Assembly (NCBI GenBank): GCA_016861265.1
Contig: BOLA01000001.1
Coordinates: 459,569-523,568, forward strand
From: Patescibacteria group bacterium
GTDB taxonomy: Bacteria; Patescibacteriota; Dojkabacteria; J137
Direction of reading: 5' to 3'
Length of the DNA: 64,000 nucleotides
The translations under genes and the position numbers were made by a program. Positions 32,112 through 61,299 of this stretch are shown here, one piece after another. The notes beneath the pieces are model-generated. The model ran no database searches and was not told the origin of the DNA. It saw only the letters and a program-made list of their open reading frames with translations. How positions within the stretch are numbered: the stretch's first letter is position 1; every line of letters starts with the position of its first letter.

Positions 32112-35100
32112 ATGACTGCAAACAATAGAGTAAACCTCACTAAGAACCCCACCCCAAAAATGCCAATGGACTATCTAGAAGCCCAGAAGGAATTTTTTCA
32201 AAGGTACAAGACTGAAGGTTTCGAAGAATTATTTGATGAAATCAATCCTATAGCCGACTATACAGGATTAAATTGGGAAATCGCATTCGAAGGCTTCGAA
32301 TGGGGAGATCCAAAAATCAGCTTCAGAGATGCACAACTACTAGGACAAACCTACGATGCTCCTGTGCATGCAAACGTTAGACTCCTAAATAAAAAGACAG
32401 GTGAAATTAAAAAGCAAAAAATATACCTATGCGACATGCCATTAATGAGCGACAGAGCCTCATTTATGATTAATGGTAACGAAAGAGTTGTTGTTTTCCA
32501 GATTTTAAGATCAGAAGGTTTATTATTCTCTGAAAGCAAGGCTTCTTCTTCAAAGAAGAAACTTTATTCAGTTAAGTTAATGCCTCACAGAGGAAACTGG
32601 TACGAATTCGAAGTTAATAAATACGGTGTAATGAGTATCAAACTATTACAGAAAAGACCTAGAATTCTTTTGACTACTTTATTAAGAGCTTTAGGCTACA
32701 GTTCCGATGCAGATATTAAAAGAGTGCTTGGTGCTGTTGACGAAGGTGAAACAAGCTTTATTGATGCAACACTAAGAAAAGACCCTACAAAAAATACAGA
32801 AGAAGCTCTAGTAGATATCTATAGAAAATTAAGACCAGAAGATACTGTTACTATAGAAAATGCAAAAGCTTTAATTGAAAATATTTTCTTTAATAAAAGA
32901 AGATTCTATTTAGGAAAAATCGGAAGATATAAACTAAACAAGAAACTTGGAGTAAAAGAAGAAATTACAAATGCTGATTACATTCTAAAAAAGAGAGACG
33001 TTGTAGAAGTAATAAAGAGACTAATCCAATTAAATCATGGAGCATTACAACCTGATGATATTGACTCATTGAGCAATAGAAGAATTAGAGGAGTAGATGA
33101 ATTAGTTGCAGAAAAAATTAGAGTAGGAGTTCTAATTATGGAAAAGAACATCAAAGACAAGATGGCTACTTTCTCCACAGACGAAAAAGTAACTCCTGCC
33201 ATGATTGTAAATACTAGACCTATTGTGTCTGCTATTAACCAATTCTTTGGTAGTTCTGCATTAATGAGATTCATGGACCAGAGCAATATATTCTCTGAGC
33301 TTGAGGCTAAAAGAAAGATTACTGCTGGAGGACCAAGAGGTTTAACAAAAGAAAGAGCTACATTCTCTGTTAGAGACGTACACAATTCTCACTATGCGAG
33401 ATTATGTCCTGTTACTACACCAGAAGGTCCATCTATCGGTATGGTAAACCAATTAGCTATTTATACAAAAATAAATGAATATGGTTTCCTAGAGGCTCCA
33501 TACTTCAATATAGTGAATAAATTTGTTGTTGAAAAAGATAATGTTGCAGATTTTGCGAACAGAACATTACTTGAAGATTTAGTTGTTGACGGTAAAAAAG
33601 TAGGTAAAACCGGTGAAACAATTAGCAAAGAAATGGTAGAGAAGGCAAGAAAAGCAGGATTAACTGAATTCAAGATTAGACCATTTGTAACTGACGAGAT
33701 TGTTTATATTGATGCAGATACTGAATTAGAGCATAAAATTGCCAGCGCAAGTGTTCATAGAGATGAACAAGGTAATTTAGTAGAAGATCAGACTTACGTA
33801 AGAGATGGTCAGAATTATGCAAAAGTAAAGATTTCAGAAGTAGACTATCTTGACATTAGCCCAGCACAAATTGCATCTATGGGATTAGCATTAATTCCAT
33901 TTGCAGGTAATGACGACCCAAATAGAACATTAATCGGTGCTAAGACTCAAGGTCAAGCAATTCCTTTAATAAGAAATCAATCACCTATTGTTGGTACGGG
34001 CTTCGAAACTGAAGCTGCAAGGGCTAGCGGAAGAACTGTATATGCTGAAGATGACGGAATGGTAATCTATGCAGATGCAGCAAAAGTAACTGTGAGCTAT
34101 GGAAAGAATGATATTGTAGACTATCCTGTCGAAAAGTTTGTAAGAACTAACCAGAATACATCATTCTCACAAACTCCTATTGTTCTTCCTGGACAAAAAG
34201 TAAAGAAGGGAGATGTTCTAATTGATGGACCTTGTACAAAAGAAGGAGAGTTAGCACTTGGTGTAAACTTAAGAACTGCATACATGGTATACGACGGATA
34301 CAATTTTGAAGACGGGATTGTGATTTCACAGAGAGTTATAAAAGAAGATCTTTTAACTTCGGTACATATTCAAGAATATATTCAAGAAGTTAGAGAAACA
34401 AAACTTGGTAATGAATTAATTACAAGAGACATTCCTGGTGTTGGAGAACACGCACTTAGAAACCTAGACGAAGAAGGTGTAGTAAGAATCGGTGCTAGTG
34501 TTTCAGCTAACGATATTTTAGTTGGAATTATTGCTCCAAAAGGAGAAAGTGAATTAACAGCTGAAGAAAAACTTTTGAGAGCAATCTTTGGAGAATACGC
34601 AAGAGATGTTAGAGATAACTCTTTAAGAATGCCTTATGGAGAACATGGAGTAGTTGTTGCAGTTCAAATTCTTGATAGAGATTCAGGCGCTAAGTTAAAC
34701 GCTGGAGTTCTAAAGCAAGTTAAAGTTTGGGTTGCTAAGACACACAGAATTGGAATTGGAGATAAATTAACAGGATTCCACGGAGACAAAGGTGTTATTA
34801 CAAAAGTTGTTGCAGAGGAAGATATGCCTCATACAGCTGATGGACACCCAGTAGACATTATATTAGGTCCATCTTCTATGATTAGAAGAATGAACATTGG
34901 ACAATTAATGGAAGTACACGTTGGAGAGTTAGCAAGAAAAACCGGCGTAAAAGTACAAGTTCAACCATTCTCAGAATTTAGTCTAAATCCTTTATTGGAC
35001 TTAGCTAAACAAAAAGGAGTAGATTACGAAGAAAAAGTTGATCTATACGATGGTAGAACTGGAGAGAGATTTAAACAAAAAGTAACTGTTGGAATGAAGT

Positions 35101-35543
35101 ATATGTTCAAGTTAGACCACTTGGCTGATCACAAAGTTCATGCAAGATCTACTGGTCCATACACATTAGTTACTCAACAGCCACTTAGAGGTAAAGCTCA
35201 AAGAGGAGGAAGAAGATTCGGAGAAATGGAAGTTTGGGCACTTGAAGCTCATGCGGTACCAAATGTATTGCACGAAATGCTTACAATTAAGTCCGACGAT
35301 GTTGTAGGTAGAGCAGCAGCTTATAAGGCTATTATTTCTGGTCAAAAAATTACAGCACCTAACGTTCCTGAATCATTCAATGTATTGGATAAGGAATTGG
35401 CAGGTTTAGCAGTAAAGCTAGACAAGATTAACGCTGAATACGACGATGAAAGAGCTGATATGGCACTTGAGGAAATTGTTGACTCAATTGGAAACGGAAA
35501 CGTAATGGAGGATCCTAACTTAACAGTTATGGATGCTGAATAA
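32112..35543 (+). CDS. rpoB: DNA-directed RNA polymerase subunit beta
   Basis: 1143 aa with conserved beta regions (GDKLTGFHGDKGVI; RFGEMEVWALEAHA). Confidence 0.97.
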   Translation: MTANNRVNLTKNPTPKMPMDYLEAQKEFFQRYKTEGFEELFDEINPIADYTGLNWEIAFEGFEWGDPKISFRDAQLLGQTYDAPVHANVRLLNKKTGEIKKQKIYLCDMPLMSDRASFMINGNERVVVFQILRSEGLLFSESKASSSKKKLYSVKLMPHRGNWYEFEVNKYGVMSIKLLQKRPRILLTTLLRALGYSSDADIKRVLGAVDEGETSFIDATLRKDPTKNTEEALVDIYRKLRPEDTVTIENAKALIENIFFNKRRFYLGKIGRYKLNKKLGVKEEITNADYILKKRDVVEVIKRLIQLNHGALQPDDIDSLSNRRIRGVDELVAEKIRVGVLIMEKNIKDKMATFSTDEKVTPAMIVNTRPIVSAINQFFGSSALMRFMDQSNIFSELEAKRKITAGGPRGLTKERATFSVRDVHNSHYARLCPVTTPEGPSIGMVNQLAIYTKINEYGFLEAPYFNIVNKFVVEKDNVADFANRTLLEDLVVDGKKVGKTGETISKEMVEKARKAGLTEFKIRPFVTDEIVYIDADTELEHKIASASVHRDEQGNLVEDQTYVRDGQNYAKVKISEVDYLDISPAQIASMGLALIPFAGNDDPNRTLIGAKTQGQAIPLIRNQSPIVGTGFETEAARASGRTVYAEDDGMVIYADAAKVTVSYGKNDIVDYPVEKFVRTNQNTSFSQTPIVLPGQKVKKGDVLIDGPCTKEGELALGVNLRTAYMVYDGYNFEDGIVISQRVIKEDLLTSVHIQEYIQEVRETKLGNELITRDIPGVGEHALRNLDEEGVVRIGASVSANDILVGIIAPKGESELTAEEKLLRAIFGEYARDVRDNSLRMPYGEHGVVVAVQILDRDSGAKLNAGVLKQVKVWVAKTHRIGIGDKLTGFHGDKGVITKVVAEEDMPHTADGHPVDIILGPSSMIRRMNIGQLMEVHVGELARKTGVKVQVQPFSEFSLNPLLDLAKQKGVDYEEKVDLYDGRTGERFKQKVTVGMKYMFKLDHLADHKVHARSTGPYTLVTQQPLRGKAQRGGRRFGEMEVWALEAHAVPNVLHEMLTIKSDDVVGRAAAYKAIISGQKITAPNVPESFNVLDKELAGLAVKLDKINAEYDDERADMALEEIVDSIGNGNVMEDPNLTVMDAE

Positions 35544-35578
35544 ATAATTATTATTGATAAATCTTAACCTAATAACCT

Positions 35579-38500
35579 ATGCTTAAAGATTTTAATGCAG
35601 TAAAGATTTCAGTAGCGTCACCAACAGACATTATGAATTGGTCTCATGGTGAAATTGCAAGAGCTGAAACAATCAACTACAGAACATTCAAGCCTGAACC
35701 AGGAGGATTAATGGCTGAAGAAATTTTTGGTCCAACTAAAGATTTTGAGTGTTACTGCGGTAAATACAAAAAAATTAGATACAAGGGAATTGTTTGCGAC
35801 AGATGTGGAGTTGAAATAACACACAAAAGAGTAAGAAGAGAGCGAATGGGTCATATTAAATTGGCTGCACCTGTTGCTCATGTATGGTTCTCTAATGGAG
35901 TTCCAAACAAACTATCCCTAATTCTTGATATTCCTCAAAAGAAATTGGAGACAGTAATTTACTACGCCAGATACGTTGTTACTAATGTAATTGATGAGGA
36001 AAGAGTAAAAGCATTGGCTAGTCTTGAGGAACTAAAAAAGAGCGAAATGGCTGATGTTGAGACTGAATTAGAAGACAAAATAAAGGAGATTAATGCCCAA
36101 TTTGAAGAAGAATCAAATGATATTAAGAAGGCAACAAAAGAAAAAGCTAAATTAGACTTACAATTAGAAAGAGTAAGAAATAACGAAAAGACTCAAATTG
36201 CAAGAATCAAATCTGCATATAAACAGAAGCAAGATAATATAGAAAAGAAGTTTGTAGACCTAAAAGCTCTAATTGAAGATGTAACACTAGGCTCAACATT
36301 ATCAGAGGAAGAATACCAAATGTTAGATTCATACGGATTCTACTTCTTTGAAGCAGGAATGGGTGCTGAGGCAATCAAGGAATTATTAGACAAGCTAAAT
36401 GTAGCTGAAGAAATCACTCTTTTAGAAGAAGAAATGAAAACAAGCAAATCTGTTCTAAAAAAGAGCAGAATTGTACAAAGATTGAGAATAATGAAGGGTC
36501 TTTTAAAATCAGGAGTACATCCAGCATGGATAGTCTTAGAAGTATTACCAGTTATTCCACCAGATTTAAGACCTATTGTTCAATTACCTGGAGGTAGATT
36601 TGCCACATACGATCTAAATGACTTATACAGAAGAGTAATTAACAGAAACAACAGACTTAAGAGATTAATAGCTTTGGGAGCTCCAGAAATCATTCTAAGA
36701 AACGAAAAAAGAATGCTTCAGGAAGCTGTAGACTCTTTATTGGATAATAACCATAAACCTGGTGCACCATCTTTAAATACAAGAGGTCTACCATTCAAGT
36801 CATTATCTGACATGTTAAGAGGAAAGCAAGGTAGATTTAGACAAAACTTATTAGGTAAGAGAGTAGACTACTCAGGAAACGCAGTAATTGTTCCAGGACC
36901 TGAATTATCATTCGATCAATGCGGTTTACCAAAAGTAATTGCATTAGAATTATTCAGACCATTTATTATTAGAGAATTAATTGCAAGAGGATTTGCGGCT
37001 AACCCAGCTAAAGCAAAATTGATTTTTGAAAGTCAAATTGATGAAGTATGGGATATTCTTGAAGATGTAAGTAAAGACAGACCTGTTTTACTAAACAGAG
37101 CTCCTACATTACAGAAGCAGAGTATTATTGCATTCTTCCCAACATTAATTGAAGGTAATGCTATTAGATTACACCCAATGACCTGTGCCGGATTCAATGC
37201 CGACTTCGATGGAGACCAAATGGCTGTACATTTACCACTATCCGATAAGGCTGTGGAAGAAGTTAAGGAAAGAATGTTTGCTAAGAATAACCTTCTATCT
37301 CTAAAAGATGGTTCACCTTTATACAACGTATCTAAGGACATGGCATTCGGAATTTACTTCTTAACATTAATGAGAGGTGATGAAAAAGATGCAGTAAAGG
37401 TATATTCAAACTTGGAAAATCTAATTTCAGCTTATTATCTAGGTGAAATTCACTTTGATGAGCCTGTAAAATTATTGCTAGACGGTAAAATTATTGTAAC
37501 TACTGCAGGTAGAGCAAGATTAAATAAGGCTTTACCAGAAGGACATGAATACATTAATACAGCACTAGGACTTAAAGATATATCTGCATTATCTGCAAAT
37601 ATCTTTAATGTATATGGTAACGAAGTAGCCCTATTAACACTTGATAAAATTAAAAACTTAGGCTTTATATATGCAGGAAAATTAGGATTCTCAATTTCTA
37701 TGGATGAATTTAGATTTGGAGGAAACGAGATTCTTGAAGAAAGATTAAAGCAATTCGTGAAAGTGGAGGATTCATTAGGAAACGATTACGTTGAAGGTTT
37801 CATTACAGAAAACGAATTGAAATGGAGAAGAAGAGATGAATGGCAGAAAGAAGTAGACAAGATTCAAGAGGAAATTTGGAATCTAGCTCAAGAGAAATCA
37901 ACAAATCTTGTTGATTTAAGTAACTCAAAAGCTATTCCAGTTGCACCATGGGTTAAGAAGATTTCTGGAGTTCAAGGTTTTGTAACAGACCCATCTGGAA
38001 ATATTGTAGACCTACCTTTAAAGAATAATTTTGAAAAAGGTTTAACAAACTTTGAATACTTTGTTGCTGCTAGAGGTGCTAGGAAAGGTTTCGCAGACGT
38101 AGCTCTAAGAACAGCAGACTCTGGTTACCTAACAAGAAGATTGCACGATGTAGCTCAGGATATTATTACAAATACTGAAGATTGCGGGACAACAGAAGGC
38201 GTATTTATTGAAAGATCTGCAAAGAGAATTCAATCATTTACAAATAGATTGAAGGGAAGATACTTAGCTGAAGACTTAGTAAATCCTAAGACTGGCGAAG
38301 TAATCTTAAAGAGAAATGATGCAATTACATTAGACATGGCCAAGAAGATAGACGCTATAGCCGAAGTTGAACAAGTAAAAGTAAGAAGTGCGATTACTTG
38401 TAATGTGGCCCATGGAATATGTCAGAAATGTTATGGTTACGATTTGGGAACAGGAAAACCTGTTGATATAGGAGTAGCTGTAGGTACAATCTCTTCTCAA

Positions 38501-39538
38501 TCATTAGGAGAGCCTGCAACACAGTTAACTCTAAAATCTAAATCAGATGCTAGAGCAGGTAGTGCAGACATTACTCAAGGTTTACCTAGAGTAGAGGAAT
38601 TACTAGAAGCTAGAACACCAAAAGCATTATCTTTATTATCCGATATTTCCGGTGTAGTAAAAGTAATTGACGATAAGAAGAAGGTTGTAATTAGAGTAAC
38701 TGGTGAAAAGAAGATGTCAAAGAAATACACTCTTGATAACGCAGAAAACATTGTTGTAAAAAATGGAAAAACTGTAAAGACTGGAGATGTATTAGCCGTA
38801 GTAAAGAAGAAAGAATTACAGGCAGAATTTGGAGGTGTAGTGACCGTTGAAGGCAACTCGATTACTTTGGATGGCTCAAAGGAAGTTGAAGTAGAAAAAG
38901 AAACTGAAAGCTTAATTAACTTAGTAGTTAAAGATGGCCAGACTGTAGAAAAAGGAGATCAATTAACATTTGGTTCAATTGACCCTAAGGAATTAGCTAA
39001 ACTAAAGAGTATTGAAGAAGCACAAAAGTACATTATTAAAGGTGTTCAAGAAGTATTAGGTATTTCTGGTATTGAAGTAGACGACAAGCACTTAGAAATT
39101 GTTGTAAGACAAATGGCAAGATATGGAATGGTTTCTGACAGCGGTGATAGTGAGGAATACTTACTAGGAGACTATGTAGATATTCTTGATCTAGAAACTG
39201 AAAACCAGAGACTTGCAGAGGAAAAGAAGAAGCCTATAAAGGCAGTTAGAGTATTAATGGGAGTTACAAACTCAGCATTAAGAACCGAAAGCTTCTTATC
39301 TGCTGCATCATTTGAACAGCAAGTTAGAGTATTAACAGATGCTGCTTTAATTGGTAAGATAGACCATTTGAGAGGATTGAAAGAAAATGTTATAATCGGC
39401 AGACCTGTTCCACTTGGAGACGAGTTAAAGAGAAAACTAGGTCTAATTGAAGAGGAATCTGAGGAATTAGACGAACCAGATATGGATGAGCAGAATGAAG
39501 ATTCTTTAAATACTTTAGGAACAAACGATAATTTATAA
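35579..39538 (+). CDS. rpoC: DNA-directed RNA polymerase subunit beta'
   Basis: 1319 aa with a zinc finger ([20 protein letters not shown]) and the NADFDGDQM catalytic motif. Confidence 0.97.
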   Translation: [1319 protein letters not shown]

Positions 39539-40849: not shown

Positions 40850-41641
40850 ATGAATCTAAAAGTAGACAAGTCTGTTAAGAACTTCCTATTGGATTTCGGA
40901 TTAACAGATAAAGAGATTACCGTATATACAACTCTCCTTAAGACAGGGCCAAACACCATCATGAATTTGGCAAGAGAAACTGGCATTAAAAGATCAACAA
41001 CTCATAATACAGTTGAAGAATTAATCAAGAAGGGGTTAGTGAGCCAAACTAACTATGGAGAGAGAAGAATGGTAATAGCAGAAGACCCAGACAAACTAAA
41101 GTTCTTAATGGAACAGAAGAAGTGGGATATAAATAAATTGGAGAAGAATTTGCCAGAAATCATTTCCACTATTACAGCCGCCTTACCTAATAGCAACTCC
41201 GATGACAATAAAATGGAGGTAAAATACTACACTGGAATTAAAGGTGTACAGTATATATATTCAGAAGCTGCCAAATCCAAAGAACTAAGGTCATATGTAA
41301 ACATATCTAGAATATTTGAAACATTTCCTGAAAATCCCCAGCTATTCCCAGACAATGTAACAAAAGGATTACAAATGTGGGAATTTATTGAAGATTCACC
41401 CATTTCAAGAGAGTATGTCTCCAAACTTAATAGTGCTAACTACCGATACAAATTTTTTCCAAAAAAAATGAATATGGATGTATTTGATTATATGATTTTT
41501 GACAATAAAGTTGCCATTATTACCTCAGACCACATGAACCATGTTACGGGGATACTGATACAGAATAAAAATGTATACGAAAACGCTAAGTTCGTGTTTG
41601 AAATGACATGGGAGTTAGCACCTATACCAAATATTAAATAA
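40850..41641 (+). CDS. TrmB-family transcriptional regulator
   Basis: The N-terminal winged helix (FLLDFGLTDKEITVYTTLLKTGPNTIMNLARETGIKRSTTHNTVEELIKKGLV) matches the TrmB helix-turn-helix. It also has a C-terminal effector-type domain. Confidence 0.65.
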   Translation: MNLKVDKSVKNFLLDFGLTDKEITVYTTLLKTGPNTIMNLARETGIKRSTTHNTVEELIKKGLVSQTNYGERRMVIAEDPDKLKFLMEQKKWDINKLEKNLPEIISTITAALPNSNSDDNKMEVKYYTGIKGVQYIYSEAAKSKELRSYVNISRIFETFPENPQLFPDNVTKGLQMWEFIEDSPISREYVSKLNSANYRYKFFPKKMNMDVFDYMIFDNKVAIITSDHMNHVTGILIQNKNVYENAKFVFEMTWELAPIPNIK

Positions 41642-42668
41642 AGGTAGCCCAGTACATTTTTCGTTCTATGGTAGGTTTGAATTTCAATTTAAATTCATCT
41701 AAAGATTTGAATTCAGACCCACCTAAATTTAGATACTTTACCCCCATAGCTTCTAGCTTTAAAAGCAAGTCAAACATCAAAAAATCAGTCAGGTAATTAT
41801 CAACTTCTCTATCAGTAATAGTAGCGTATAAAGATGCCAATTCTTTACTTTGATGCTCGACAATATACATTCCAATCGGGTCATCTTCCTTGTAAATTAT
41901 TGTTTGAGTATAGATATCATCTGGTCCATGAAAATCAATAATATTGTGGTAGTCCTCAGGTCTAGAAATTAAGTATTCCCGCTGTTTAAAAAATTTTGCA
42001 ACTAATTCCCTGGAATCCTCTTTATTTTCAAAGATACTTTTGAATGAGTAAATATTATCATTTTTAGTCTTTAGGTAGTTTCGAAGCGATCTATTCAATT
42101 GTCTAGTTCTACCCAAACTTCTCGCTAATTCTATAGTTTTGTTTACATCAAGTATTCTTTCAGGATAAGTATCATCCTCTGAGGGGACATCATTTTGCCA
42201 AGGACTTAATTTAACATCAGAAAAGCCTTTTGAAATTAAAGTATCATAATCCCCTTTAAATATCTTCTTAACATATGTTCTTGTACCGAACTTAGTCTTT
42301 ACTATATCTGCCAGTTTGATAATGATGTCAATATAGTCTTTTCCCATTGGCCTAACGATATAGAAAGGAATGACATCCTCATGATGCAGCTTAGGATAGA
42401 AACAAAGTGAAATCAGATTCTCCCCATCATAATATTTATATCCGATTCCATAATCTCCAATTCCATACATTCCTTGTATAATGTATGTCCATGCATTACC
42501 ATAAGTTTCAGGAGACGCAACAAAGAACTTTTTATAAAGTTCATAATCTCCGGGACTAATGGGTGTTATATTTGTCATATCCAGTGACAACTCTGACATC
42601 ATCTCATTTGCTTTTTTCAGCGGATTCATAAAGACCTTGTTTATAAAAGGATCAAGCGATTTTAACAT
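41634..42668 (-). CDS. Hypothetical GNAT-fold protein, possibly DUF2156/FemAB-like (aminoacyl-tRNA-dependent transferase-like)
   Basis: 344 aa. It has a YELYKKFFVASPETYGNAWTYI N-region and a C-terminal LNLGGSEFKSLDEFKLKFKP, reminiscent of LPG-synthase-C/Fem-family folds. This is a weak assignment. Confidence 0.3.
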   Translation of the reverse strand: MLKSLDPFINKVFMNPLKKANEMMSELSLDMTNITPISPGDYELYKKFFVASPETYGNAWTYIIQGMYGIGDYGIGYKYYDGENLISLCFYPKLHHEDVIPFYIVRPMGKDYIDIIIKLADIVKTKFGTRTYVKKIFKGDYDTLISKGFSDVKLSPWQNDVPSEDDTYPERILDVNKTIELARSLGRTRQLNRSLRNYLKTKNDNIYSFKSIFENKEDSRELVAKFFKQREYLISRPEDYHNIIDFHGPDDIYTQTIIYKEDDPIGMYIVEHQSKELASLYATITDREVDNYLTDFLMFDLLLKLEAMGVKYLNLGGSEFKSLDEFKLKFKPTIERKMYWATFI

Positions 42669-42699: not shown

Positions 42700-43467
42700 T
42701 TAATTAATTAAATTCCACTGAAAATCAAATAACTCTCTTGATATCTCATAAAATGATCTGTTCTCAATTACGACGGCATGTGGATTAGGGAAACCATATA
42801 CAATAGCAACATTCCCGTCATAGATTAAATAATCCATGGAGTCGAATTTGACGGATAAGGGTAAATTCTTAATTTGAAAATTAGGATATATTCTTGAGAA
42901 CTCTTTGACAGGCTCCTCAATGAAACTATCGAAATGATGGAAATCCCAAAGTTTCAAACCATTGACAACCCTTTTCATAAATCGTTCCCAATTTAAAGGA
43001 AATACCTTTATAATTTCTTTTGCATTCACATAGGTACGAACCTCTTTCGATTCTAGAATCCTATCGTATAACCAATCAATTGAGTCAATATTTGTAAAAT
43101 ACTTAACTTGTGTTTCTGTAGCTTCTTTAATAAAGGATGTTTCTCTATATATAGACTCTATTAATGGTTGCATCATAAGTGACTTCTTTTTAAGAATTTG
43201 CTCTTCTCGTTCCAAGATACTCATTAAACTTTCAGGTGATAAACCTTTTAACTTTCTCTTAGCTTTAACTTGCAACTCTACTACTATTCCTACTTCCTTC
43301 AACTTTTCACATAACAAATGAGCGCTTGTGCGATTCAAATTCAACCTGTTAGACAATTCCATCACAGATGCGGGACCAGAACGAAGCAGAGACAAGTAAA
43401 TTTGGGATTCTTTCTCAGATAAACCAAATTGTTTCAGAAGAACGAAAACTGTGCTCATGTTAACCAA
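42700..43467 (-). CDS. TrmB-family transcriptional regulator (second copy)
   Basis: LLKQFGLSEKESQIYLSLLRSGPASVMELSNRLNLNRTSAHLLCEKLKEVGIV matches the TrmB helix-turn-helix. Domain architecture is similar to 40850..41641. Confidence 0.6.
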   Translation of the reverse strand: MVNMSTVFVLLKQFGLSEKESQIYLSLLRSGPASVMELSNRLNLNRTSAHLLCEKLKEVGIVVELQVKAKRKLKGLSPESLMSILEREEQILKKKSLMMQPLIESIYRETSFIKEATETQVKYFTNIDSIDWLYDRILESKEVRTYVNAKEIIKVFPLNWERFMKRVVNGLKLWDFHHFDSFIEEPVKEFSRIYPNFQIKNLPLSVKFDSMDYLIYDGNVAIVYGFPNPHAVVIENRSFYEISRELFDFQWNLIN

Positions 43468-43611: not shown

Positions 43612-43884
43612 ATGAATAAAACAAATCTAGGTCAACGTATCAAATATTTTCGAAAACGCTCAAAGCTATCTCAAATGGAGCTAGAGCTTCGAATAAATGC
43701 CTCCTTTGGAAGTGTTAGTAGAATGGAGAACGGGATTACAAATCCAACTAAGGAAACACTATTTTCAATTGCAGAGGCTCTTGAACTTTCTGCAGTTGAA
43801 ACAGCTACTTTGTTTGGAATAAATATTTCAGAAGAGAACACTGACTTTATAACTGAGTTATTTGATAATATTTTTCAAGTTTAA
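43612..43884 (+). CDS. XRE-family helix-turn-helix transcriptional regulator
   Basis: LGQRIKYFRKRSKLSQMELELRINASFGSVSRMENGITNPTKETLFSIAEAL matches the Cro/C1-type helix-turn-helix. Confidence 0.7.
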   Translation: MNKTNLGQRIKYFRKRSKLSQMELELRINASFGSVSRMENGITNPTKETLFSIAEALELSAVETATLFGINISEENTDFITELFDNIFQV

Positions 43885-45670
43885 AGCCCCTATTAGCGTA
43901 GTATTCCCTTGTACCTATACTAGAGATCACAGCCAGTTTAGCAAAACCACCTTCAACTGATATTTCTTTAGCTTTCTCTATTAATTTTGTTCCTAGACCC
44001 AAGTGCTGAGCCTGACCAGTAGAATCCTTGCTTAATTCCATACTAGGACCATAGACATGAATCTCTCGAATAATTGCACAGTCGTTTAGCTCATCGGTTA
44101 TTATATTCTGTTTACTCTTAGGTAAAGACAGCCTTAAAAAACCAGCTATTTCGTTTTTAGCAGTCACAAATTGCAAAAAGAACTCATTAGTTAATTCAGT
44201 AGAATAGGGCACTATTTTCAGGCTTAAATCTTCAAATTTCAGGCTCTTTGACTTAACTTCCCTTGCCCTAATATTATCGTTTTTCCTTCCTTCTGATTTT
44301 AGTTTAAATTCAACCACTTCTCTTAAATTTGTAGTTTTATTACCATCTGCGATTTCTGTTGATGGAATATCCCTAATTATTCTTGTAAGTCTGCAGTATT
44401 CGGGAGTAGATTCCATACAATCAGCTATTAAATTAACTAATTGCTCCGAAGTATATGGAACATACTTGCCTTGCTCCCATAAAGTATACAGCTCTGTGTT
44501 TTTTATTATTGAGGTAGGATAAATTTTTAGTTCGTCCGGCTTATACTCGGGACTATCGAACAATTCTCTATATACACTTAGGTCCAGCTCAGGTGTTGAA
44601 CCATACAAGTTGGGCATAATATGTGCGTGAATTTTAAAACCACCTGCTCTAAGTAACTGAAAGGCCTTTGAGGTATCAATTCGATGTTCGCCCCTTTTAT
44701 TTAAATCACTGATTTTATCGTCCAGAGTTTGTATTCCTAGTTGAATTTTAGTCGTCCCTAACTTCCTTAAGTCTAGTACCTCTTTGGGTGTAATAGTGTC
44801 AGGTCTTGTTTCTAATACTAAACCAACGCATCTGCAGTTGCATTTAGAATTAATATCCTGCTGCTCATTTAAAGCTTCCCAAGTAATGTCTTTCTCAGGA
44901 ATTATCTTGCTAGAAAACTCTTCTTTAAATTCCTTGGTTTGAATAAGCTGGTTATATGGCTTGTTGCCGTAAATAGTCCTTAGATTATCATTAAAGTCAT
45001 TTTTTAAATCCCCTCTAATATCTATATTCTTTAATTCTTCAACATTTTGATTTTCTACGTCAATTTGCTCTTCGTATTTTCTACTAAAGTCGTTCATTGC
45101 CCTAAAACATTCATGAATAAACCATATTTTGTAGCTCTTTGAATAGTAGCTCCAGGTTCCCCCCAAAATTAACAATTCAATTTTCTGAGTAGGGTGACCA
45201 ATATTCTTTAGTGCCTGTAGCCTATTAAAAACCTGCCCGTATGGACTGAACCTATTCATTAAGGCTCTTTGAGCTCCCGGTTCGCTGGCGATATAACTTT
45301 TAGGCATTCTTACATCGTTAGGGCAGAATATGCATTGGCCTGGACATGCGAACGGCTTAGTAAGCACTGTTACCGTAGTCACTCCGGATGCCGTTCGCAT
45401 AGGTTTTAGTTTTATGGCATCAATTATGTCTTCAAAGCGTTCAATATCGGTAGGCTCGAAGCCAGCTTCGATTGCATTTTCAGAGATTGCAAAGAATTTT
45501 AGTCCTGCAATCAGATTATCTCTGCTAAAAATCTCATTTTTATCTTTAGGGTGTCGTTTTAAAATCTTATCCAATTCCCGTAAGGTAAATTCTTCTTTAG
45601 ATAAAATTTCAAATATTATCGAACTTAATTCTGTTTTATATTTTTCTACTGAAAAGCTATAGTTTTGCAT
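43847..45670 (-). CDS. elp3: Elp3-family radical SAM / GNAT protein (putative tRNA uridine-34 carboxymethyl-modification enzyme)
   Basis: Radical-SAM CX3CX2C motif (FACPGQCIFCPN) and an Elp3-like TIM-barrel region. The C-terminal GNAT/KAT domain (REIHVYGPSM...QHLGLGTKLIEKAKEIS) mirrors eukaryotic and archaeal Elp3. Confidence 0.75.
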   Translation of the reverse strand: MQNYSFSVEKYKTELSSIIFEILSKEEFTLRELDKILKRHPKDKNEIFSRDNLIAGLKFFAISENAIEAGFEPTDIERFEDIIDAIKLKPMRTASGVTTVTVLTKPFACPGQCIFCPNDVRMPKSYIASEPGAQRALMNRFSPYGQVFNRLQALKNIGHPTQKIELLILGGTWSYYSKSYKIWFIHECFRAMNDFSRKYEEQIDVENQNVEELKNIDIRGDLKNDFNDNLRTIYGNKPYNQLIQTKEFKEEFSSKIIPEKDITWEALNEQQDINSKCNCRCVGLVLETRPDTITPKEVLDLRKLGTTKIQLGIQTLDDKISDLNKRGEHRIDTSKAFQLLRAGGFKIHAHIMPNLYGSTPELDLSVYRELFDSPEYKPDELKIYPTSIIKNTELYTLWEQGKYVPYTSEQLVNLIADCMESTPEYCRLTRIIRDIPSTEIADGNKTTNLREVVEFKLKSEGRKNDNIRAREVKSKSLKFEDLSLKIVPYSTELTNEFFLQFVTAKNEIAGFLRLSLPKSKQNIITDELNDCAIIREIHVYGPSMELSKDSTGQAQHLGLGTKLIEKAKEISVEGGFAKLAVISSIGTREYYANRGFKLEKYYQITQL

Positions 45671-45790
45671 CTGGCAATTTTACCATACTATAGGCCATTA
45701 TAGTTTTTAGGTTGATTATTTCAAAGCAATCAAATTATTCAAAAAAACGTAATTGCGTTCTGATAAAATAGAGTAGATTAAGCTGAATTT

Positions 45791-46477
45791 ATGGATTTAT
45801 ATTCTACATACGCACAAGAATTTTCAAATACAAGACAGGCCCCATGGGATGGCTGGAAGCACCTTTTAAAATACCTAAAAGATGTGCCGCACCCCAAGAT
45901 ACTTGATTTAGGCTGTGGGAATGGTCGATTCCTAAAGTATTTGATTAATTCTGAAATTGATATTGGAGCCTATGTGGGCATAGATAATTCCTCAGAACTT
46001 TTGAAAATGACCGATGAATTCATGGATAAGACTAGAAAGTCCAATAATTTGTCAAAATTCCAACTATTAAACATCGATTTTGAAAACTTAAACTGGGGAA
46101 CAGAAGTAACCGATCAATTCGACTTTATCGGAGCCTTTGGAATTACACATCACTTAAAATCTGTAGAAAGTCGCAAGAAGTTTTTTGAAACGGTAAATTA
46201 CTTACTAAAGCCAGGAGGTTTTTTTGCAGTTACATTTTGGGAATTTTTAAAACTCGAAAGATATGCCAATAAAATTACTCCTGTAACAATCGACGGTTCA
46301 AAAAATGATTTTGAAATGACATTTGGTACTAATGGAGCAAAACGATTCTGTCATTACTACAACCCTCTAGAAATAATAGAGTACACACATAATCTACCTT
46401 TCAAACAAATTGAAGAATTTAACGAAGATGGCGTAGAAAATAATCAAAACCATTATATTGTTTATAAAAAGAATTAA
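45791..46477 (+). CDS. trm9: Trm9/ALKBH8-like SAM-dependent tRNA methyltransferase
   Basis: Alignable to yeast Trm9: YAQEFSNTRQAPWDGW (compare YNEIAPHFSQTRYKPWPIV), ILDLGCGNGRFL (compare IDVGCGNGKYL) and GITHHLKSVESRKKFFETVNYLLKPGG...TFWEF (compare AVVHHWSTRERRVEVIRHVLSKLRQGG...YCWALEQ). Confidence 0.6.
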   Translation: MDLYSTYAQEFSNTRQAPWDGWKHLLKYLKDVPHPKILDLGCGNGRFLKYLINSEIDIGAYVGIDNSSELLKMTDEFMDKTRKSNNLSKFQLLNIDFENLNWGTEVTDQFDFIGAFGITHHLKSVESRKKFFETVNYLLKPGGFFAVTFWEFLKLERYANKITPVTIDGSKNDFEMTFGTNGAKRFCHYYNPLEIIEYTHNLPFKQIEEFNEDGVENNQNHYIVYKKN

Positions 46478-47145
46478 TGGATTTTAGAAGAAATACAGGA
46501 ACAAGAAGTTTAAGTACTCGTAAATTTAACACCAAGATACAGGTTTTCAGGGACAATTACCTAAACATAAAATCCATAATTAAGTTTTTGCTGCCGTTTA
46601 TTATTGTTCTTGCTGTTACTCCCATTGCACTTGTATATTTAGTAAATATCACCTATCAAAGAAGAACAATCACTACAGATTCAGAGATTCCGCTTGAATT
46701 AAGAACTGGTGTAGTAATTTTAAAACAATCAGATATTCTGTATGACTTTGATAATGCAAAGAAAATTATCGACCTTGTAAAAGATTTGTATTCAAAAAAA
46801 AGAGTTACCCAAGTCTTAATTATTTCCTATAACAACGATAGAGCAATTATCCCGTCGATTGAACCCTATCAACAGTTTTTCAAAGATATACCCACAGATA
46901 ACTACAAAATTGATATCTCTACAAATTCAATAACAGAGGCGTGCGATGTTATTAAGAACAAATACAGCATTCAGAAGTTTGTATTAAGCTCCTATGGAAA
47001 CTTACTACCTAGATTAAGTTTTGCATGTAGTTTTCAAGATCTATATGTAAAGCCATATCTTCCTAAAGATCTTTATATAATTACCCCTGCAGATGACTTT
47101 AACGAAACACTAGATCTTGTATTAAAAACTATATTCCCCGAATAA
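46477..47145 (+). CDS. Membrane-anchored hypothetical protein, possibly DUF218/SanA-like
   Basis: N-terminal TM helix and weak resemblance to SanA/YdcF. Its start overlaps the trm9-like stop (TAATG), indicating translational coupling. Confidence 0.3.
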   Translation: MDFRRNTGTRSLSTRKFNTKIQVFRDNYLNIKSIIKFLLPFIIVLAVTPIALVYLVNITYQRRTITTDSEIPLELRTGVVILKQSDILYDFDNAKKIIDLVKDLYSKKRVTQVLIISYNNDRAIIPSIEPYQQFFKDIPTDNYKIDISTNSITEACDVIKNKYSIQKFVLSSYGNLLPRLSFACSFQDLYVKPYLPKDLYIITPADDFNETLDLVLKTIFPE

Positions 47146-47226
47146 GATTCTTACTCTTATTGAACAATAAATTACTTAAATCCGTGGCGAGTCCGTTGTA
47201 GAATGTAATTAAGTTAAAAAATTATT

Positions 47227-48336
47227 ATGAATGGAAAAAAGACAATATTTATAGGAATTATAGTTGCAGTAGTCGCCTTGGTACTGACTATTGTAATCCT
47301 TTTGCTATCTCAGCTTAGCAATATTACTGGAAACAATAATTCGCCTGCTTCGATACCCGTAAGTAACCCAAACAATGTAAATATTATTGATTTAAATAAC
47401 TCCAAAGGAGGTGCCTTTGAATATGCAGTAATTAGACCTGACGACACAATTGAATTAAGAAATAAGCTAAACGAAAAATTTATTATTGGATTAGAAAAAA
47501 GGAACTGGAAAAGTCTAAAATGGAGCCCGGACGGAAAACTTGTTGCGGTTCTTGGAAAATCTACTCCAGCAATCTACGACATATATATATATAACTTGGC
47601 CCAAAAAGAGTGGAGTACAGCAACTGATTTTAAAAACTTTAGTACTGGGGTTGATCAATACAACTGGGTAGAAAACAATACAATTCTATTTACTCAAGGA
47701 GAAGACCCTACAAGATGGATACATAGATTCAATTATGTTTCAAAAGAGATTCTCAAGGTTGCAAATGTTTCGGGAGATATAGTAAGCCAAAGCCCGGATC
47801 TTAAATATATTGTTGTTAAAGCCGACAATGCTGTTCCTCAGATTTTTAATGCATCAGGTGAGCTACAGGAATTCCCATTAGGCACACTGACAGATGCTGA
47901 GACAGCAAATCCTATTGCGTTAAATGAAATTAAGTTTTTTAATAACTCCGAGAAAGTATTAGCAAGAGATGTTTATGGCGACTTTTATAAATTTAACTTG
48001 GGCGACAATACTGCCGTGAGAACAACAATAAATTCCTCAACTTCTTTGGTGTGTTCCTTGACCGAGAATAGTTTTAATGGCTTTACCTCTACAAGTAATA
48101 CTTTATCGTATGGAACATATTCTTCTAAAGATAATGTTTTTAATATTCTAGGTGAAGAATCCTTTAAGCTTTCCTTTACTGTGGACTTACAAAATTCATA
48201 TTGTGCTAACGGGAACATATATCTAAAGCTTCTATTTGCAGATGAAAGTACTCAGTGGTATAAACAAGAAGCTACCAAAATAGAGGCAGATGGAGTTCTG
48301 GATGGTAATTTAGAAACAGATATTATAGAAAAATAA
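47227..48336 (+). CDS. Hypothetical membrane-anchored extracytoplasmic protein (possible beta-propeller)
   Basis: N-terminal TM helix and a TolB-like LKWSPDGKLVAVLG repeat. No confident family. Confidence 0.4.
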   Translation: MNGKKTIFIGIIVAVVALVLTIVILLLSQLSNITGNNNSPASIPVSNPNNVNIIDLNNSKGGAFEYAVIRPDDTIELRNKLNEKFIIGLEKRNWKSLKWSPDGKLVAVLGKSTPAIYDIYIYNLAQKEWSTATDFKNFSTGVDQYNWVENNTILFTQGEDPTRWIHRFNYVSKEILKVANVSGDIVSQSPDLKYIVVKADNAVPQIFNASGELQEFPLGTLTDAETANPIALNEIKFFNNSEKVLARDVYGDFYKFNLGDNTAVRTTINSSTSLVCSLTENSFNGFTSTSNTLSYGTYSSKDNVFNILGEESFKLSFTVDLQNSYCANGNIYLKLLFADESTQWYKQEATKIEADGVLDGNLETDIIEK

Positions 48337-48686
48337 TGAATTCAAAAGACCTAATAAAAAATGCGGAAGAAATACTTGTAAACGAAGGGGTTGATGTCTC
48401 AAAAAAAAGTGATTCAGAAACCCTAAAAGAGTATATTTTACCTGCAATGGAATCTTCTAAGGATATACTAAGTACCATATACGCATTCAATTCAAGAAGC
48501 AGAGAAGGATTTCTTGGAAAGATAAAAACTAAGATACAACAAAAAATCATTTTTACAGTAATTAACGTGATCGAAAAGCAATCAATGAGACAACAGAAGT
48601 TTAATGAACTTACCTTTAGAGCTGTTGAAAAATTAATTGCGGAGAATGAAAGTCTAAAAAAAGAATTAGAAGCATTAAAAAAGTGA
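48336..48686 (+). CDS. Hypothetical small coiled-coil protein
   Basis: 116 aa, charged, with a C-terminal coiled coil (LIAENESLKKELEALKK). It is co-oriented and start/stop-coupled with the upstream gene. Confidence 0.4.
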   Translation: MNSKDLIKNAEEILVNEGVDVSKKSDSETLKEYILPAMESSKDILSTIYAFNSRSREGFLGKIKTKIQQKIIFTVINVIEKQSMRQQKFNELTFRAVEKLIAENESLKKELEALKK

Positions 48687-48699
48687 TATAATTCAAGCA

Positions 48700-48872
48700 A
48701 ATTCGCAACTACCTTAGATTAACGTCACTAGGGGAGAAAAGGAAAGAATGTTGTTTTGTAGAATCCTTCGGGACAAGCCCGTTACAGCTTATGAAAAGAG
48801 CCTGCGCTAGCAGGAACTGAGGTGGTACCGCTGGAATCAGCCCTCATAAATAGTAACTTTTACTTTTATATT
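48700..48872 (+). promoter_or_regulatory. Candidate T-box-like leader upstream of valS
   Basis: GC-enriched 5' leader. It contains a CCTGC-GCTA-GCAGG hairpin (48801..48814) immediately followed by AACTGAGGTGGTACCGCTGG, which matches the T-box consensus AAUUAGGGUGGNACCGCG with UGGU for a tRNA with discriminator A. A GUA codon followed by a purine lies in the upstream stem region. Confidence 0.35.
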
Positions 48873-51515
48873 ATGAGTTTACCAAACGGACCATACAACC
48901 CTCAGGAAACAGAAAACGAAATCCTGAATTTTTGGTTAGAAAATAAGCTATACAAACCCGAATATAACCCATCGGAAGATAGAATCATGTCTACTGAAGA
49001 GATGAAAGCAGATGTACGCGAAGCATGGGCATTAATTTGCCCACCTCCAAACGCATATGCAAGACCCCATATCGGAAATATTTCAGGGTATGCCTACCAA
49101 GATGCGATGGCAAGATACGCCAGAATGCAGGGCAAAAAAGTTTTAGTACTGCCAGGTAAAGATCATGCGGGACTAGAAGGTGAAGGTGTTTTTGTTAGAG
49201 AAGTTTTAGAAAAACAAGGCAGAAATAAGTTCGATATAAAAAGGAAAGACTTTTACGCAGAAATGATGGACTTCTTTATGAAGAACATTGATATTGCAAG
49301 AAATGATGAAAAAACAATTGGTTTATCCGCTGACTTTGATAGAGATACATTCACACTTGACCCAGCTATTGTTGAAACAGTATTAGACACATTCGTAGAA
49401 ATGTATAACGATGGCAAAATTTATAAAGGAGTTAGAATTGTAAACTGGGATCCTAAGGCTAGAACAGCAGTTGCTGACAACCAAGTTGAATTTAAGGAGT
49501 CTCAAACACCCTTCTTTTATTTTAAGTACTCCTTCCCCGAGCCAGAAACCAAGGCAATCGAGCTAAGAAGAGAATACGAAGGAAAAGGCGTATTGTGGAA
49601 GGTGCAGGAATCTGACGAGAAAACCTATTACCTAATGGGAGAAACTCATAAGGGAATTAAGATACTAGGTGTTGGCTATGACAAAGTACCTGCAGGAAAC
49701 GAAGTAAACGGTGAGGTAATAGGAATACAAATGAGATTAGATGGAGACTTTAGACTTGTAGTAAAAGGAATAGACTTTGAAGGCGATATACAATCCGAAG
49801 TTAATAAAGTAACTTTAGAATTATTTAGTAAGATTGCCGGATCGCACATAATATTGTTCGCGAATAACCACGATGAAAAGCTATACACTAATGGCTTTGT
49901 TATAGGAACAGTAAGGCCTGAGACAATTTTTGCAGATACGGCAATAGCATGCGATCCAAAGGATGCTAGATACAAGCAATATGTAGGTAAAAAAATAGAT
50001 GTCGAATTCTTGGGAGAAAAGAAAACACTTCACTTTATTGAGGATTATGCAGTAGATAAAGATTTTGGTACAGGATTACTAAAAGTTACTCCCGCACATG
50101 CGGTTGAGGATTGGGAAATTGCACAAAGGCACACAGAATGTTTGCCGGCAATACAGGTAATTGGCTACGATCTAAGACTGAACAAACTAACAGGCAAATA
50201 CAACGGTATGGGGATTAAGGAAGCAAGAAGAGCAATGCAGGAAGATATGCTTGCGAATGGCAATCTTGTTTATGTAGACGAAAATTATCAGAATAAGATT
50301 AAAATTGCAGAACGAACAAAGGCAGCTATAGAACCGCTACTATCAAGCCAATGGTATTTAAAATACGATGGAATAAGGGAAGCAGCAATAGAGATGGTAA
50401 AAAGTAATCAAGTTACAATTCACCCAGACAACATGGTTAAAAAGTTTGATCATTGGATGGAGAACCTTAGGGACTGGGCAATATCCAGAAGTTTATGGTG
50501 GGGCTACAGACTTCCTGTTTGGTATGCGGGTAAAGTTTTTGAAGAAATCGATGATAACGGACATGTAAAAGAATTTATTGAGATTAACGGAAAAAAGGAG
50601 GAATTGGATTATAAAAATTCAAATCATTTGAGAGTACAGAAACAAAACCCAGGAAAAGGCTGGATTCAAGACGAAAATGTTTTAGATACCTGGTTTAGTT
50701 CAGGGCAATGGGTTTATGCAACCTTAACAAAATATAATTTAATGGATAAATTTTTCCCTACGAGTGTATTAGTGTCAGCACATGATATTCTAGAAAATTG
50801 GGACTCTAGAATGATGATGTTTACTTACTTTAAACACAAACAAATTCCTTTTAAAGATTTATTCTTAACTGGCCTTGTTTTAGGAACAGATGGGCAGAAA
50901 ATGAGTAAATCCAAAGGGAACTTAATTGACATGGATAAAGTAAGAACTGAATTTGGCACCGATTCTGTTAGAATGACCTACTTCTATCAAAATAGTGCGG
51001 GAGCAAGTTATTCTGTAACTCCCGATAAATTAAAAAACTTTAAGCAGTTTAACAATAAGATCTGGAATGCGGCTAAGTTTGTATTAATGAATGCAGAAAA
51101 TGCTACGGACTATACATATTCACAGCCCAAATTAGAAGGCTTGAAATTAGAGAATAGTAAAACAATATTTAACCACATTATCAATACTAAGGCTGCCGTA
51201 ACAAAGAATATTAATAATTTTGAATTCGGCTATGCAACAGATACTTTGTATCAGGAATTCTGGCATACTTTCTGTGACTTATACATTGAATCTAGTAAAC
51301 AGTATCTAAATACAATTAAAGATAAAGAAAGTGGAGAAGTAATAAGTGAACCTAGTCTAGATGATAAACAAGAAACCTTAAACGTTTTAATATATTCGCT
51401 AAAAGAATTCATTAAAATGCTTCATCCGTTTATTCCGTTTATCACAGAAAAGATCTGGAGAGAATTGCCTAAAGTAGAAGGAGACCACAAAACTGTAATG
51501 TATTCTCGATGGTAA
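48873..51515 (+). CDS. valS: Valine--tRNA ligase
   Basis: Class I aaRS with PPPN...HIGN (at the HMGH position), the ValRS-type RYARMQGKKV region, KMSKSKGN and an anticodon-binding C-terminus. Confidence 0.9.
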   Translation: MSLPNGPYNPQETENEILNFWLENKLYKPEYNPSEDRIMSTEEMKADVREAWALICPPPNAYARPHIGNISGYAYQDAMARYARMQGKKVLVLPGKDHAGLEGEGVFVREVLEKQGRNKFDIKRKDFYAEMMDFFMKNIDIARNDEKTIGLSADFDRDTFTLDPAIVETVLDTFVEMYNDGKIYKGVRIVNWDPKARTAVADNQVEFKESQTPFFYFKYSFPEPETKAIELRREYEGKGVLWKVQESDEKTYYLMGETHKGIKILGVGYDKVPAGNEVNGEVIGIQMRLDGDFRLVVKGIDFEGDIQSEVNKVTLELFSKIAGSHIILFANNHDEKLYTNGFVIGTVRPETIFADTAIACDPKDARYKQYVGKKIDVEFLGEKKTLHFIEDYAVDKDFGTGLLKVTPAHAVEDWEIAQRHTECLPAIQVIGYDLRLNKLTGKYNGMGIKEARRAMQEDMLANGNLVYVDENYQNKIKIAERTKAAIEPLLSSQWYLKYDGIREAAIEMVKSNQVTIHPDNMVKKFDHWMENLRDWAISRSLWWGYRLPVWYAGKVFEEIDDNGHVKEFIEINGKKEELDYKNSNHLRVQKQNPGKGWIQDENVLDTWFSSGQWVYATLTKYNLMDKFFPTSVLVSAHDILENWDSRMMMFTYFKHKQIPFKDLFLTGLVLGTDGQKMSKSKGNLIDMDKVRTEFGTDSVRMTYFYQNSAGASYSVTPDKLKNFKQFNNKIWNAAKFVLMNAENATDYTYSQPKLEGLKLENSKTIFNHIINTKAAVTKNINNFEFGYATDTLYQEFWHTFCDLYIESSKQYLNTIKDKESGEVISEPSLDDKQETLNVLIYSLKEFIKMLHPFIPFITEKIWRELPKVEGDHKTVMYSRW

Positions 51516-59924: not shown

Positions 59925-60077
59925 ATTGTTACCTCCTTTCCGTGTATTTAGTTAAGTTTAGGGTTAATAATTTCATCAGTCAACATGTTTTATAATCGTG
60001 AGCACAATTACATTTTGCCACCACAAATTGATATCTCCGTGATATAATATTTACGTGCTAACCAAAGGAGGTAACGC

Positions 60078-60389: not shown

Positions 60390-60437
60390 TGCACATCACC
60401 CATGGTGCCGGAGGTGACTTCGGCACCCTTGGGGGGA

Positions 60438-61293: not shown

Positions 61294-61299
61294 GGGGGT

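Follow-up and report, generated by a model that had tools for sequence, protein, structure and literature searches.

We report here on two divergently transcribed genes in a stretch of 64,000 nucleotides (the window) from a Patescibacteria group bacterium of the Dojkabacteria lineage (contig BOLA01000001.1, positions 459,569 to 523,568). They encode a 607-aa homologue of Elp3 and a 228-aa class I S-adenosylmethionine (SAM)-dependent methyltransferase that resembles Trm9. As judged from the sequences, the Elp3 homologue probably makes 5-carboxymethyluridine at tRNA position 34 (cm5U34) and its Trm9-like partner methylates the carboxylate to give 5-methoxycarbonylmethyluridine (mcm5U34), both activities being predicted ones. 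The enzymes, the chemistry and the clustering of the genes have eukaryotic or archaeal precedent, and automatic annotation had partly anticipated the TRM9 call; the pair is a bacterial member of a known pathway and not a new kind of system. A preliminary description of the window had already proposed such a module, and the active-site residues, a profile-profile alignment and the conserved linkage make it the best explanation for the results presented below. Beyond that description, we find that the pair is a widespread and tightly conserved bacterial unit, Dehalococcoides mccartyi included, and that seven of the eight residues essential in Trm9 appear to be preserved, with no Trm112-like gene found nearby.

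On profile and motif evidence the 607-aa open reading frame (ORF) is a genuine Elp3, as had been concluded from its radical SAM motif and its C-terminal lysine acetyltransferase (KAT) domain. It exceeded the curated cutoff of the NCBIfam ELP3 model TIGR01211 by 129 bits (479 bits against 350, E 1.6e-143, model positions 47-518 of 522), while the second-ranking NCBIfam family, MnmL/YtqA, reached 54.9 bits against a cutoff of 180. The Pfam models Radical_SAM and Radical_SAM_C matched as well; Acetyltransf_1 stayed below threshold in the window protein and was faint in its relatives. The expected motifs are in place, namely CPGQCIFC at 109-116 (CX3CX2C), GGTW at 170, ETRPD at 287 and the KAT motif QHLGLG at 555. 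The radical SAM motifs CPGQCIFC and GGTW align with their archaeal and D. mccartyi counterparts, and the acetyl-CoA-binding QHLGLG aligns with QHMGYG of M. infernus and QHRGLG of D. mccartyi. In agreement with this, the best PDB structures were the Elp3 proteins of M. infernus (6e-96) and D. mccartyi (2.4e-95), followed by eukaryotic Elp3 (about 1e-76). The alternative identity as HemN/coproporphyrinogen oxidase, which the preliminary description had raised, was rejected, the models of the HemN/HemZ/HemW type giving at best 15-25 bits against cutoffs above 200.

Within its family, the window Elp3 is a derived subtype that has an acidic N-terminal extension (1-88) and, at 199-266, an acidic insertion of about 67 aa, and that no longer has the Zn-binding cysteines. 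The alignments to M. infernus and D. mccartyi Elp3 were each split into two segments that skip residues 199-265, and at about 460-470 the window protein reads RKNDNIRARE against LRCRCIRCRE in M. infernus and QKCRCIRCRE in D. mccartyi. Comparison of 61 Elp3 proteins (related loci plus the window) showed that the Zn motif is kept in 44 and missing throughout the window's clade, and that the spacing from GGT to ETRPD is short in most (50 in the D. mccartyi type) and about 100-155 in that clade. The motif is not definitive for the family, since eukaryotic Elp3 also lacks it. The archaeal M. infernus Elp3 (PDB 6IAZ), the best PDB match, likewise works alone, without Elp1/2/4/5/6, although its motif is CX4CX2C, its tRNA-binding N-terminus is basic and it keeps the Zn cysteines, where the window Elp3 has CX3CX2C and an acidic N-terminus and lacks those cysteines. 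D. mccartyi Elp3 (DmcElp3; PDB 5L7J, 6IA6) is also a stand-alone bacterial protein, about 39% identical to that of the window and sharing with it CPGxCxxCP (CX3CX2C) and the KAT domain; in contrast to the window protein, it has 459 aa, carries neither N-terminal extension nor insertion and keeps QKCRCIRCRE. The preliminary description had called Elp3 sporadic in bacteria, which is an understatement, for one search returned 6,522 Elp3-like proteins at E <= 1e-50, some of them labelled Chloroflexota or Bacteroidota. Elp3 is thus widespread in bacteria, and the NCBI annotation pipeline already names bacterial Elp3.

The identification of the 228-aa ORF as Trm9-like is supported by its putative active-site residues, by profile-profile alignment and by its linkage to Elp3. 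Its recognizable motifs are FSNTR (11-15), GCGNG (41-45), HH (120-121), W150, RFCH (185-188) and N220, within a longer signature made of Y4, F11-S-x-T-R15, W19, D39-x-G-C-G-N-G, D65, H120-H121, R128 and W150 and, in the C-terminal half, D173, F178, R185-F-C187-H188, E194, D213 and N220. At the N-terminus, Y4, F11, S12, T14, R15 and W19 align to Y29, F36, S37, T39, R40 and W44 of Yarrowia Trm9, and D39-L-G-C-G-N-G and D65, conserved in 114-115 of the 115 family members counted, both align to Trm9. An AlphaFold2 model (predicted local distance difference test, pLDDT, 93.8) has a Rossmann-type topology. In sequence searches of the PDB the top match was Yarrowia Trm9 (5cm2_Z) whether the query was the single methyltransferase (E 1.3e-7), a profile of 35 members (1.8e-16, near full length) or a mainstream member of the candidate phyla radiation (CPR) type (1.1e-15). 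HHalign of the family against an alignment of 20 retrieved fungal Trm9 sequences gave a probability of 99.65% (E 3.5e-25, 198 columns), with a span running from the N-terminal Y...FSxTR block through the last strand, that is, over the full length.

The residues that matter in yeast Trm9 allow a stricter comparison. Mutagenesis has shown that R29, D72, H116, W145, W168, R241, Y243 and N271 are required, that H115 contributes and that the Y243A mutant retains about 10% activity, and Y18 has been modelled near the substrate carboxylate (PMC4678810). Seven of the eight required residues have a conserved counterpart in the bacterial family, Y243 being the exception (Table 1). H188 is present in 112 of the 115 members, and E194 is also conserved. 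The block-by-block alignment to yeast Trm9 claimed in the preliminary description is borne out except at Y243, where the window protein has Cys187.

Table 1. Functional residues of yeast Trm9 (ScTrm9) and their counterparts in the bacterial methyltransferases, counted over 115 members (N220 over the 35-member close family)
ScTrm9 residue	Counterpart in window protein	Conservation
R29	R15	115/115
D72	D65	114/115
H115	H120	110/115
H116	H121	111/115
W145	W150	115/115
W168	F/W178	aromatic in 112/115
R241	R185	111/115
N271	N220	34/35 of close family; HHalign aligns N220 to N222/ScN271
Y18	Y4	112/115
Y243	Cys187	variable (C/V/Y/I/F) across family

The fungal Trm9 profile proved selective. Of the 1,191 ORFs (120 aa or longer) in the fetched loci and the window, it matched 94, and 92 of these were members of this methyltransferase family; the other methyltransferases in the fetched loci were not matched, and the ORF at 45791-46477 was the only match in the window (48.8 bits). 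JGI automatic annotation labels several members "tRNA (uracil-5-)-methyltransferase TRM9". The family is large, an exhaustive profile search returning 2,047 cluster representatives (50% identity) at E <= 1e-30. Taken together, the bacterial proteins share with known Trm9 (that of yeast, the Yarrowia Trm9-Trm112 complex, the methyltransferase domain of human ALKBH8 and HvoTrm9-Trm112) the class I SAM methyltransferase fold and a similar size, as well as Y...FSxTRxxxW, GCGNG, HH, the equivalents of W145 and of the aromatic W168, RYxHxYxxE and the terminal N. They share with it also a genetic tie to Elp3, the maker of the Trm9 substrate. They differ in being only about 23-28% identical, in a 5-6 residue insertion before the last strand, in the Cys or variable equivalent of Y243 and in their bacterial host. 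As a separate observation, a methyltransferase on a contig of 22% GC (L096 4631-5317) scored 125 bits against the fungal profile, above every Elp3-adjacent bacterial member, and the 4.6 kb upstream of it contain no Elp3; this protein may belong to a distinct Trm9 lineage, perhaps a eukaryote-like one.

The strongest evidence for a Trm9-type function is the linkage to Elp3. A contig scan with the single methyltransferase found three close relatives, and the reach was widened by contig look-ups and by a metagenome scan. In eight contigs with homologues (28-47% identity to the methyltransferase), Elp3 was present in all eight (44-68% identical to that of the window), directly upstream and divergent in seven and 3 kb away in the remaining one. 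The flanks differ from contig to contig, as exemplified by GatCAB/PolA/ClpB/L19 in L015, IF3-L35-L20 plus a two-component system in L016 and SecE-NusG-L11-L1 in L017. The metagenome scan, carried out with the family alignment, added 80 loci, 52 of them with at least 1.5 kb of upstream sequence. Among these 52 independent loci, 47 (90%) carried a divergent upstream Elp3, at a median of about 220 bp to the nearest aligned Elp3 segment and over a locus GC content of 22-65%. Bacterial markers among the neighbours in six sampled loci were SmpB, YidC/Jag, MurC-type ligases, GlyA/FolD, DegP and a bacterial tryptophanyl-tRNA synthetase, and one of these loci, with 65% GC, was unlike a CPR genome. The relatives that bear names belong to Candidatus Dojkabacteria, WWE3, Parcubacteria and the "Patescibacteria group"; because look-ups of cluster members gave few taxon names, the distant loci were assigned to a domain by the marker genes around them. 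Pairwise identities of Elp3 and methyltransferase were correlated over 61 loci (r = 0.88, Mantel p about 0.001), which fits inheritance of the pair as a unit. A comparable clustering of Elp3 and Trm9 genes is known in the archaeon Sulfolobus solfataricus (PMC6144793, PMC5372719). As exceptions to the pairing, three loci (L059, L066 and L071) contain full-length methyltransferase members (154-176 bits with the family profile) but lack an Elp3 in the 2.9-6 kb upstream; it may lie elsewhere in their genomes.

The pair is also present in D. mccartyi, the source of the bacterial Elp3 of known structure. Following the DmcElp3 sequence from its PDB alignment to the genomic protein and then to the locus (CP019867.1), we found a divergent gene for a 224-aa class I methyltransferase 43 bp away, and a related Dehalococcoidia genome showed an identical layout. 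This protein carries HH, VPW, an RYY block that keeps the tyrosine equivalent to Y243 and a C-terminal RNICLLL. It matched Yarrowia Trm9 with E 2.5e-17 (blastp) and scored 72.6 bits with the fungal Trm9 profile against 48.8 bits for the window protein. By these scores it is closer to fungal Trm9 than the window protein, which has Cys187 in place of the RYY tyrosine.

On these grounds a two-step pathway can be proposed. In the first step, the [4Fe-4S]/SAM radical domain of Elp3, together with its acetyl-CoA-binding KAT domain, would carboxymethylate C5 of U34 in some tRNAs to give cm5U34, as suggested by family membership and by the published biochemistry of archaeal and Dehalococcoides Elp3. 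In the second, the Trm9-like enzyme would move the methyl group of SAM onto the cm5U carboxylate to yield mcm5U34, a step proposed because the active-site residues are conserved and the genes are linked. R15 and H121 (ScTrm9 R29 and H116) would position the carboxylate, and H120 and N220 (H115 and N271) would read the uracil. Across bacteria the pair, which shares a control region of 120 bp, appears to be inherited together. The proposal rests on the gene structures and family assignments, on the conserved active-site residues and on the linked and co-diverging genes, and from these we infer the activities, the product and the tRNA targets. There is precedent for the second step in Haloferax, where Trm9-Trm112 forms mcm5U (PMC6144793).

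Several observations weigh against the formation of mcm5U by this pair. First, Trm9 of eukaryotes and archaea depends on Trm112 to be soluble and active (PMC6144793, PMC5372719), and the archaeal pathway uses it; no Trm112-like ORF was found in the window or in the 6-10 kb around the pair (100 sequences, 920 kb) with a weak regular-expression scan for the zinc-knuckle motif, which does match E. coli YcaR. Second, the counterpart of Y243 is not conserved. Third, the N-terminal extension of the window Elp3 is acidic (13 K+R against 18 D+E in residues 1-88), as opposed to the basic tRNA-binding N-terminus of archaeal Elp3. Fourth, the methyltransferase found no specific curated match in Pfam or NCBIfam; Pfam returned five generic class I models (Methyltransf_11/12/23/25/31, 1e-11 to 1e-13), because neither collection has a Trm9-specific model. 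Fifth, the lead of Trm9 over unrelated methyltransferases in the PDB sequence searches was of only 3-8 bits, and for the D. mccartyi methyltransferase phmmer placed Trm9 just seventh, behind six other PDB methyltransferases. Finally, DmcElp3 activity in vitro is only weak (PMC7663514). A 2020 review confines bacterial Elp3 to Dehalococcoides and states that direct evidence for cm5U and its derivatives (xcm5U) in bacteria is lacking (PMC7663514). A nucleoside compendium assigns to Bacteria only 5-carboxymethylaminomethyluridine (cmnm5U), 5-methylaminomethyluridine (mnm5U) and 5-aminomethyluridine (nm5U), with mcm5U restricted to archaea and eukaryotes (PMC7694415).

Three other explanations were considered in the light of these data. 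The one that survives best, even if we regard it as unlikely, is that the methyltransferase does partner Elp3 and that the product is another one, the enzyme acting on a different Elp3-derived intermediate or atom (to give an undescribed bacterial xcm5U derivative), or that it acts on 5-carboxymethyl-2-thiouridine (cm5s2U) only. The variable residue at the Y243 position (C, V, Y, I or F) and the failure to detect a Trm112 partner would be accounted for in this way, and so would the Elp3 subtype that lacks the Zn site and has gained an acidic insertion and N-terminus, changes by which substrate handling may differ. Moreover, Haloferax without Trm9 turns cm5U quickly into other, unidentified species (PMC6144793), so that the pathway can branch. 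However, the equivalents of the residues proposed to hold the carboxylate (R29/H116) and to read the uracil (H115/N271) are nearly invariant, and this favours an unchanged reaction on an unchanged substrate.

A further reading, which we consider quite improbable, makes the methyltransferase a generic class I enzyme whose substrate is a small molecule, a protein or some other site in RNA and which owes its position beside Elp3 to inherited gene order or shared regulation. The generic Pfam matches and the label "class I SAM-dependent methyltransferase" that NCBI gives to the relatives would suit such an enzyme, as would the six PDB methyltransferases that outscore Trm9 for the D. mccartyi partner. 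Fold searches also placed many unrelated methyltransferases level with or above Trm9, a result that is uninformative because the class I fold is very uniform. Fold comparison did not single out Trm9, and the curated collections gave generic matches only. Against a generic enzyme stands the adjacency in 47 of 52 loci, which extends over unrelated flanks, over 22-65% GC and from CPR to Dehalococcoidia and rules out simple inherited gene order. The co-divergence with Elp3 (r = 0.88) points the same way, and the Trm9-specific blocks FSxTRxxxW and RYxHxYxxE...N, which lie outside the Rossmann core, are conserved and aligned to Trm9. Furthermore, among the 1,191 ORFs the fungal profile picked this family and missed the other methyltransferases in the loci.

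That the Elp3 homologue is not a tRNA cm5U synthase, acting instead as a protein acetyltransferase or as a radical SAM enzyme on another substrate within an unrelated process, appears highly improbable: its acidic N-terminus and insertion and its lost Zn site are unlike those of characterised Elp3, and xcm5U nucleosides are undocumented in bacteria (PMC7663514), but it clears the curated ELP3 cutoff with all catalytic motifs kept, tRNA has been shown to be the specific trigger of acetyl-CoA hydrolysis in the Elp3 proteins of bacteria, archaea and eukaryotes (PMC6367351), and the Trm9 active site of the partner makes sense only if cm5U is produced.

Bacteria commonly modify the same position by other means, and the MnmE/MnmG route (with MnmC or MnmL/MnmM) resembles the pathway proposed for the Elp3 pair in its target, C5 of U34, and in its decoding purpose. 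It differs in its enzymes and chemistry, which are unrelated, a GTPase, flavin adenine dinucleotide (FAD) and methylene-tetrahydrofolate leading to cmnm5U or nm5U. No MnmE or MnmG was found among the window ORFs of at least 250 aa, which speaks for the 64-kb window only, and genes for MnmC and MnmL/MnmM were likewise absent from it. We advance only tentatively, as a possibility somewhat short of even, that CPR bacteria, Dehalococcoidia and some other lineages have a self-contained Elp3/Trm9 mcm5U pathway that is free of Trm112 and replaces MnmE/MnmG in reduced genomes.

The positions of the pair and of the adjoining features are given in Table 2. All ORFs, the spacer and the motifs were present where the preliminary description had located them, and the distance it had put at about 120 bp between the two genes is exactly that. 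A strong sigma-70-like site (TTGAAA-16-TATAAT, 45724..45697, minus strand) faces the Elp3 gene; it is a lead only, because shuffled sequence gave the same number of promoter-like sites as the scanned region.

Table 2. Features of the Elp3/Trm9-like locus (window coordinates)
Feature	Position	Strand	Remarks
Elp3 homologue, 607 aa	43847..45670	minus	radical SAM plus C-terminal KAT/GNAT; TIGR01211, Pfam, PDB, motifs
Shared intergenic region, 120 bp, between divergent start codons	45671..45790		one sigma-70-like site
Trm9-like class I SAM-dependent methyltransferase, 228 aa	45791..46477	plus	predicted cm5U34 carboxyl O-methyltransferase
Membrane-anchored ORF, 222 aa, no family match	46477..47145	plus	marks module boundary only

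The 222-aa ORF that follows the methyltransferase is not part of the conserved module. The preliminary description had called it DUF218-like and translationally coupled, possibly belonging to the same unit. The coupling is real in sequence terms, as a TAATG stop/start junction at 46475-46479 makes its start overlap the methyltransferase stop by 1 nt, and the two are probably co-transcribed, in this genome only. The label had to be abandoned: no match to the YdcF-like family DUF218 (PF02698) was obtained at E <= 0.01 or even at E <= 10, and its sole Pfam match was to DpnD-PcfM at chance level (E 0.032), with none in NCBIfam. The ORF is the first of a trio (46477-48686) made up of the 222-aa membrane-anchored protein, a 369-aa protein with weak beta-propeller matches and a 116-aa coiled-coil protein. 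Conservation of this trio as a block is limited to Dojkabacteria-like loci. Inserted genes separate it from the methyltransferase by about 4 kb in L012, L014 lacks a homologue of the 222-aa ORF, and L015-L017 and L098-L099 lack all three genes, so that only close relatives show the ORF linked to the methyltransferase.

The window, with about 33% GC, is clearly bacterial DNA. Its genes include those for RpoA with a C-terminal domain of the bacterial type, RpoB/RpoC, IF-2, FtsW/RodA, RecA, RecJ and a Mur ligase, and neither a tRNA scan nor an Rfam scan gave matches in its 64 kb. GC content rises to 0.40 at 60001-62000, against about 0.33 elsewhere. A 90-aa XRE-type HTH_3 gene (43612-43884) converges on the Elp3 gene, with a 38-nt overlap at the Elp3 3' end, and HTH_3 genes occur near the pair, not adjoining it, in L008, L009 and L010. 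Two paralogues of the TrmB helix-turn-helix family (40850-41641, plus; 42700-43467, minus) enclose a 344-aa ORF (41634-42668, minus) of no family, with only a chance-level match to LPG_synthase_C; the same arrangement is found in L001 (the same contig in a public assembly, 150 kb) and in part in L009. The window rpoB and rpoC genes (32112-39538) lie a few kb upstream of the pair, and rpoB-rpoC is placed likewise in the CPR locus L010 (1-2246, plus S12-S7) and in the two Dehalococcoidia genomes L098 (1-5894) and L099 (1-5604). The wider neighbourhood is thus partly common to CPR and Dehalococcoidia; a common ancestor or the transfer of a larger block could explain this.

Genes of other tRNA modification pathways, namely those of queuosine and N6-threonylcarbamoyladenosine (t6A), are found within a few kb of the pair in several genomes. 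They include QueH in L098 (7140-7688) and L099 (6767-7327), GTP cyclohydrolase II and Q_salvage in L010 (4451-5053 and 5831-6772) and Sua5/TsaE in L009 (18608-19702). A class-V aminotransferase of the cysteine desulfurase type (Aminotran_5, E 9e-121) is encoded in the window at 12578-13756, and it is possible that it donates sulfur for assembly of the Fe-S cluster of Elp3 or for 2-thiolation of U34. Lastly, L010 contains at 14460-17291 a 943-aa class I aminoacyl-tRNA synthetase with a Ser_hydrolase (PF06821) match listed between two tRNA-synt_1 matches, at the place where the window has a tRNA-synt_1 gene (48822-51515).

As regards previous knowledge, bacterial homologues of Trm112-dependent methyltransferases have been reported as undetectable (PMC5372719), and a 2026 paper mentions Elp3 in "numerous bacteria" (PMC13315578). 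In the literature searched, which did not extend to the original description of DmcElp3 (PMC5018218), we found neither a bacterial Trm9 nor a bacterial Elp3/Trm9 pairing. A widespread bacterial pair runs against the review statements on Trm9 homologues, on xcm5U and on mcm5U. The finding of a Trm9-like gene beside Elp3 in about 90% of the sampled bacterial loci, D. mccartyi included, leads us to predict mcm5U34 in these organisms, and it suggests that bacteria make mcm5U, a modification attributed until now to eukaryotes and archaea only. It could also help to explain the weak activity of DmcElp3 in vitro, studied without its likely pathway partner, and a specific predicted role could be assigned to about 2,000 protein clusters that at present bear the label "class I SAM-dependent methyltransferase". 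If the tentative proposal of a self-contained, Trm112-free pathway is true, the divergent pair would be the Elongator pathway in its minimal ancestral form and would offer a tractable Trm112-independent Trm9 for structural work.

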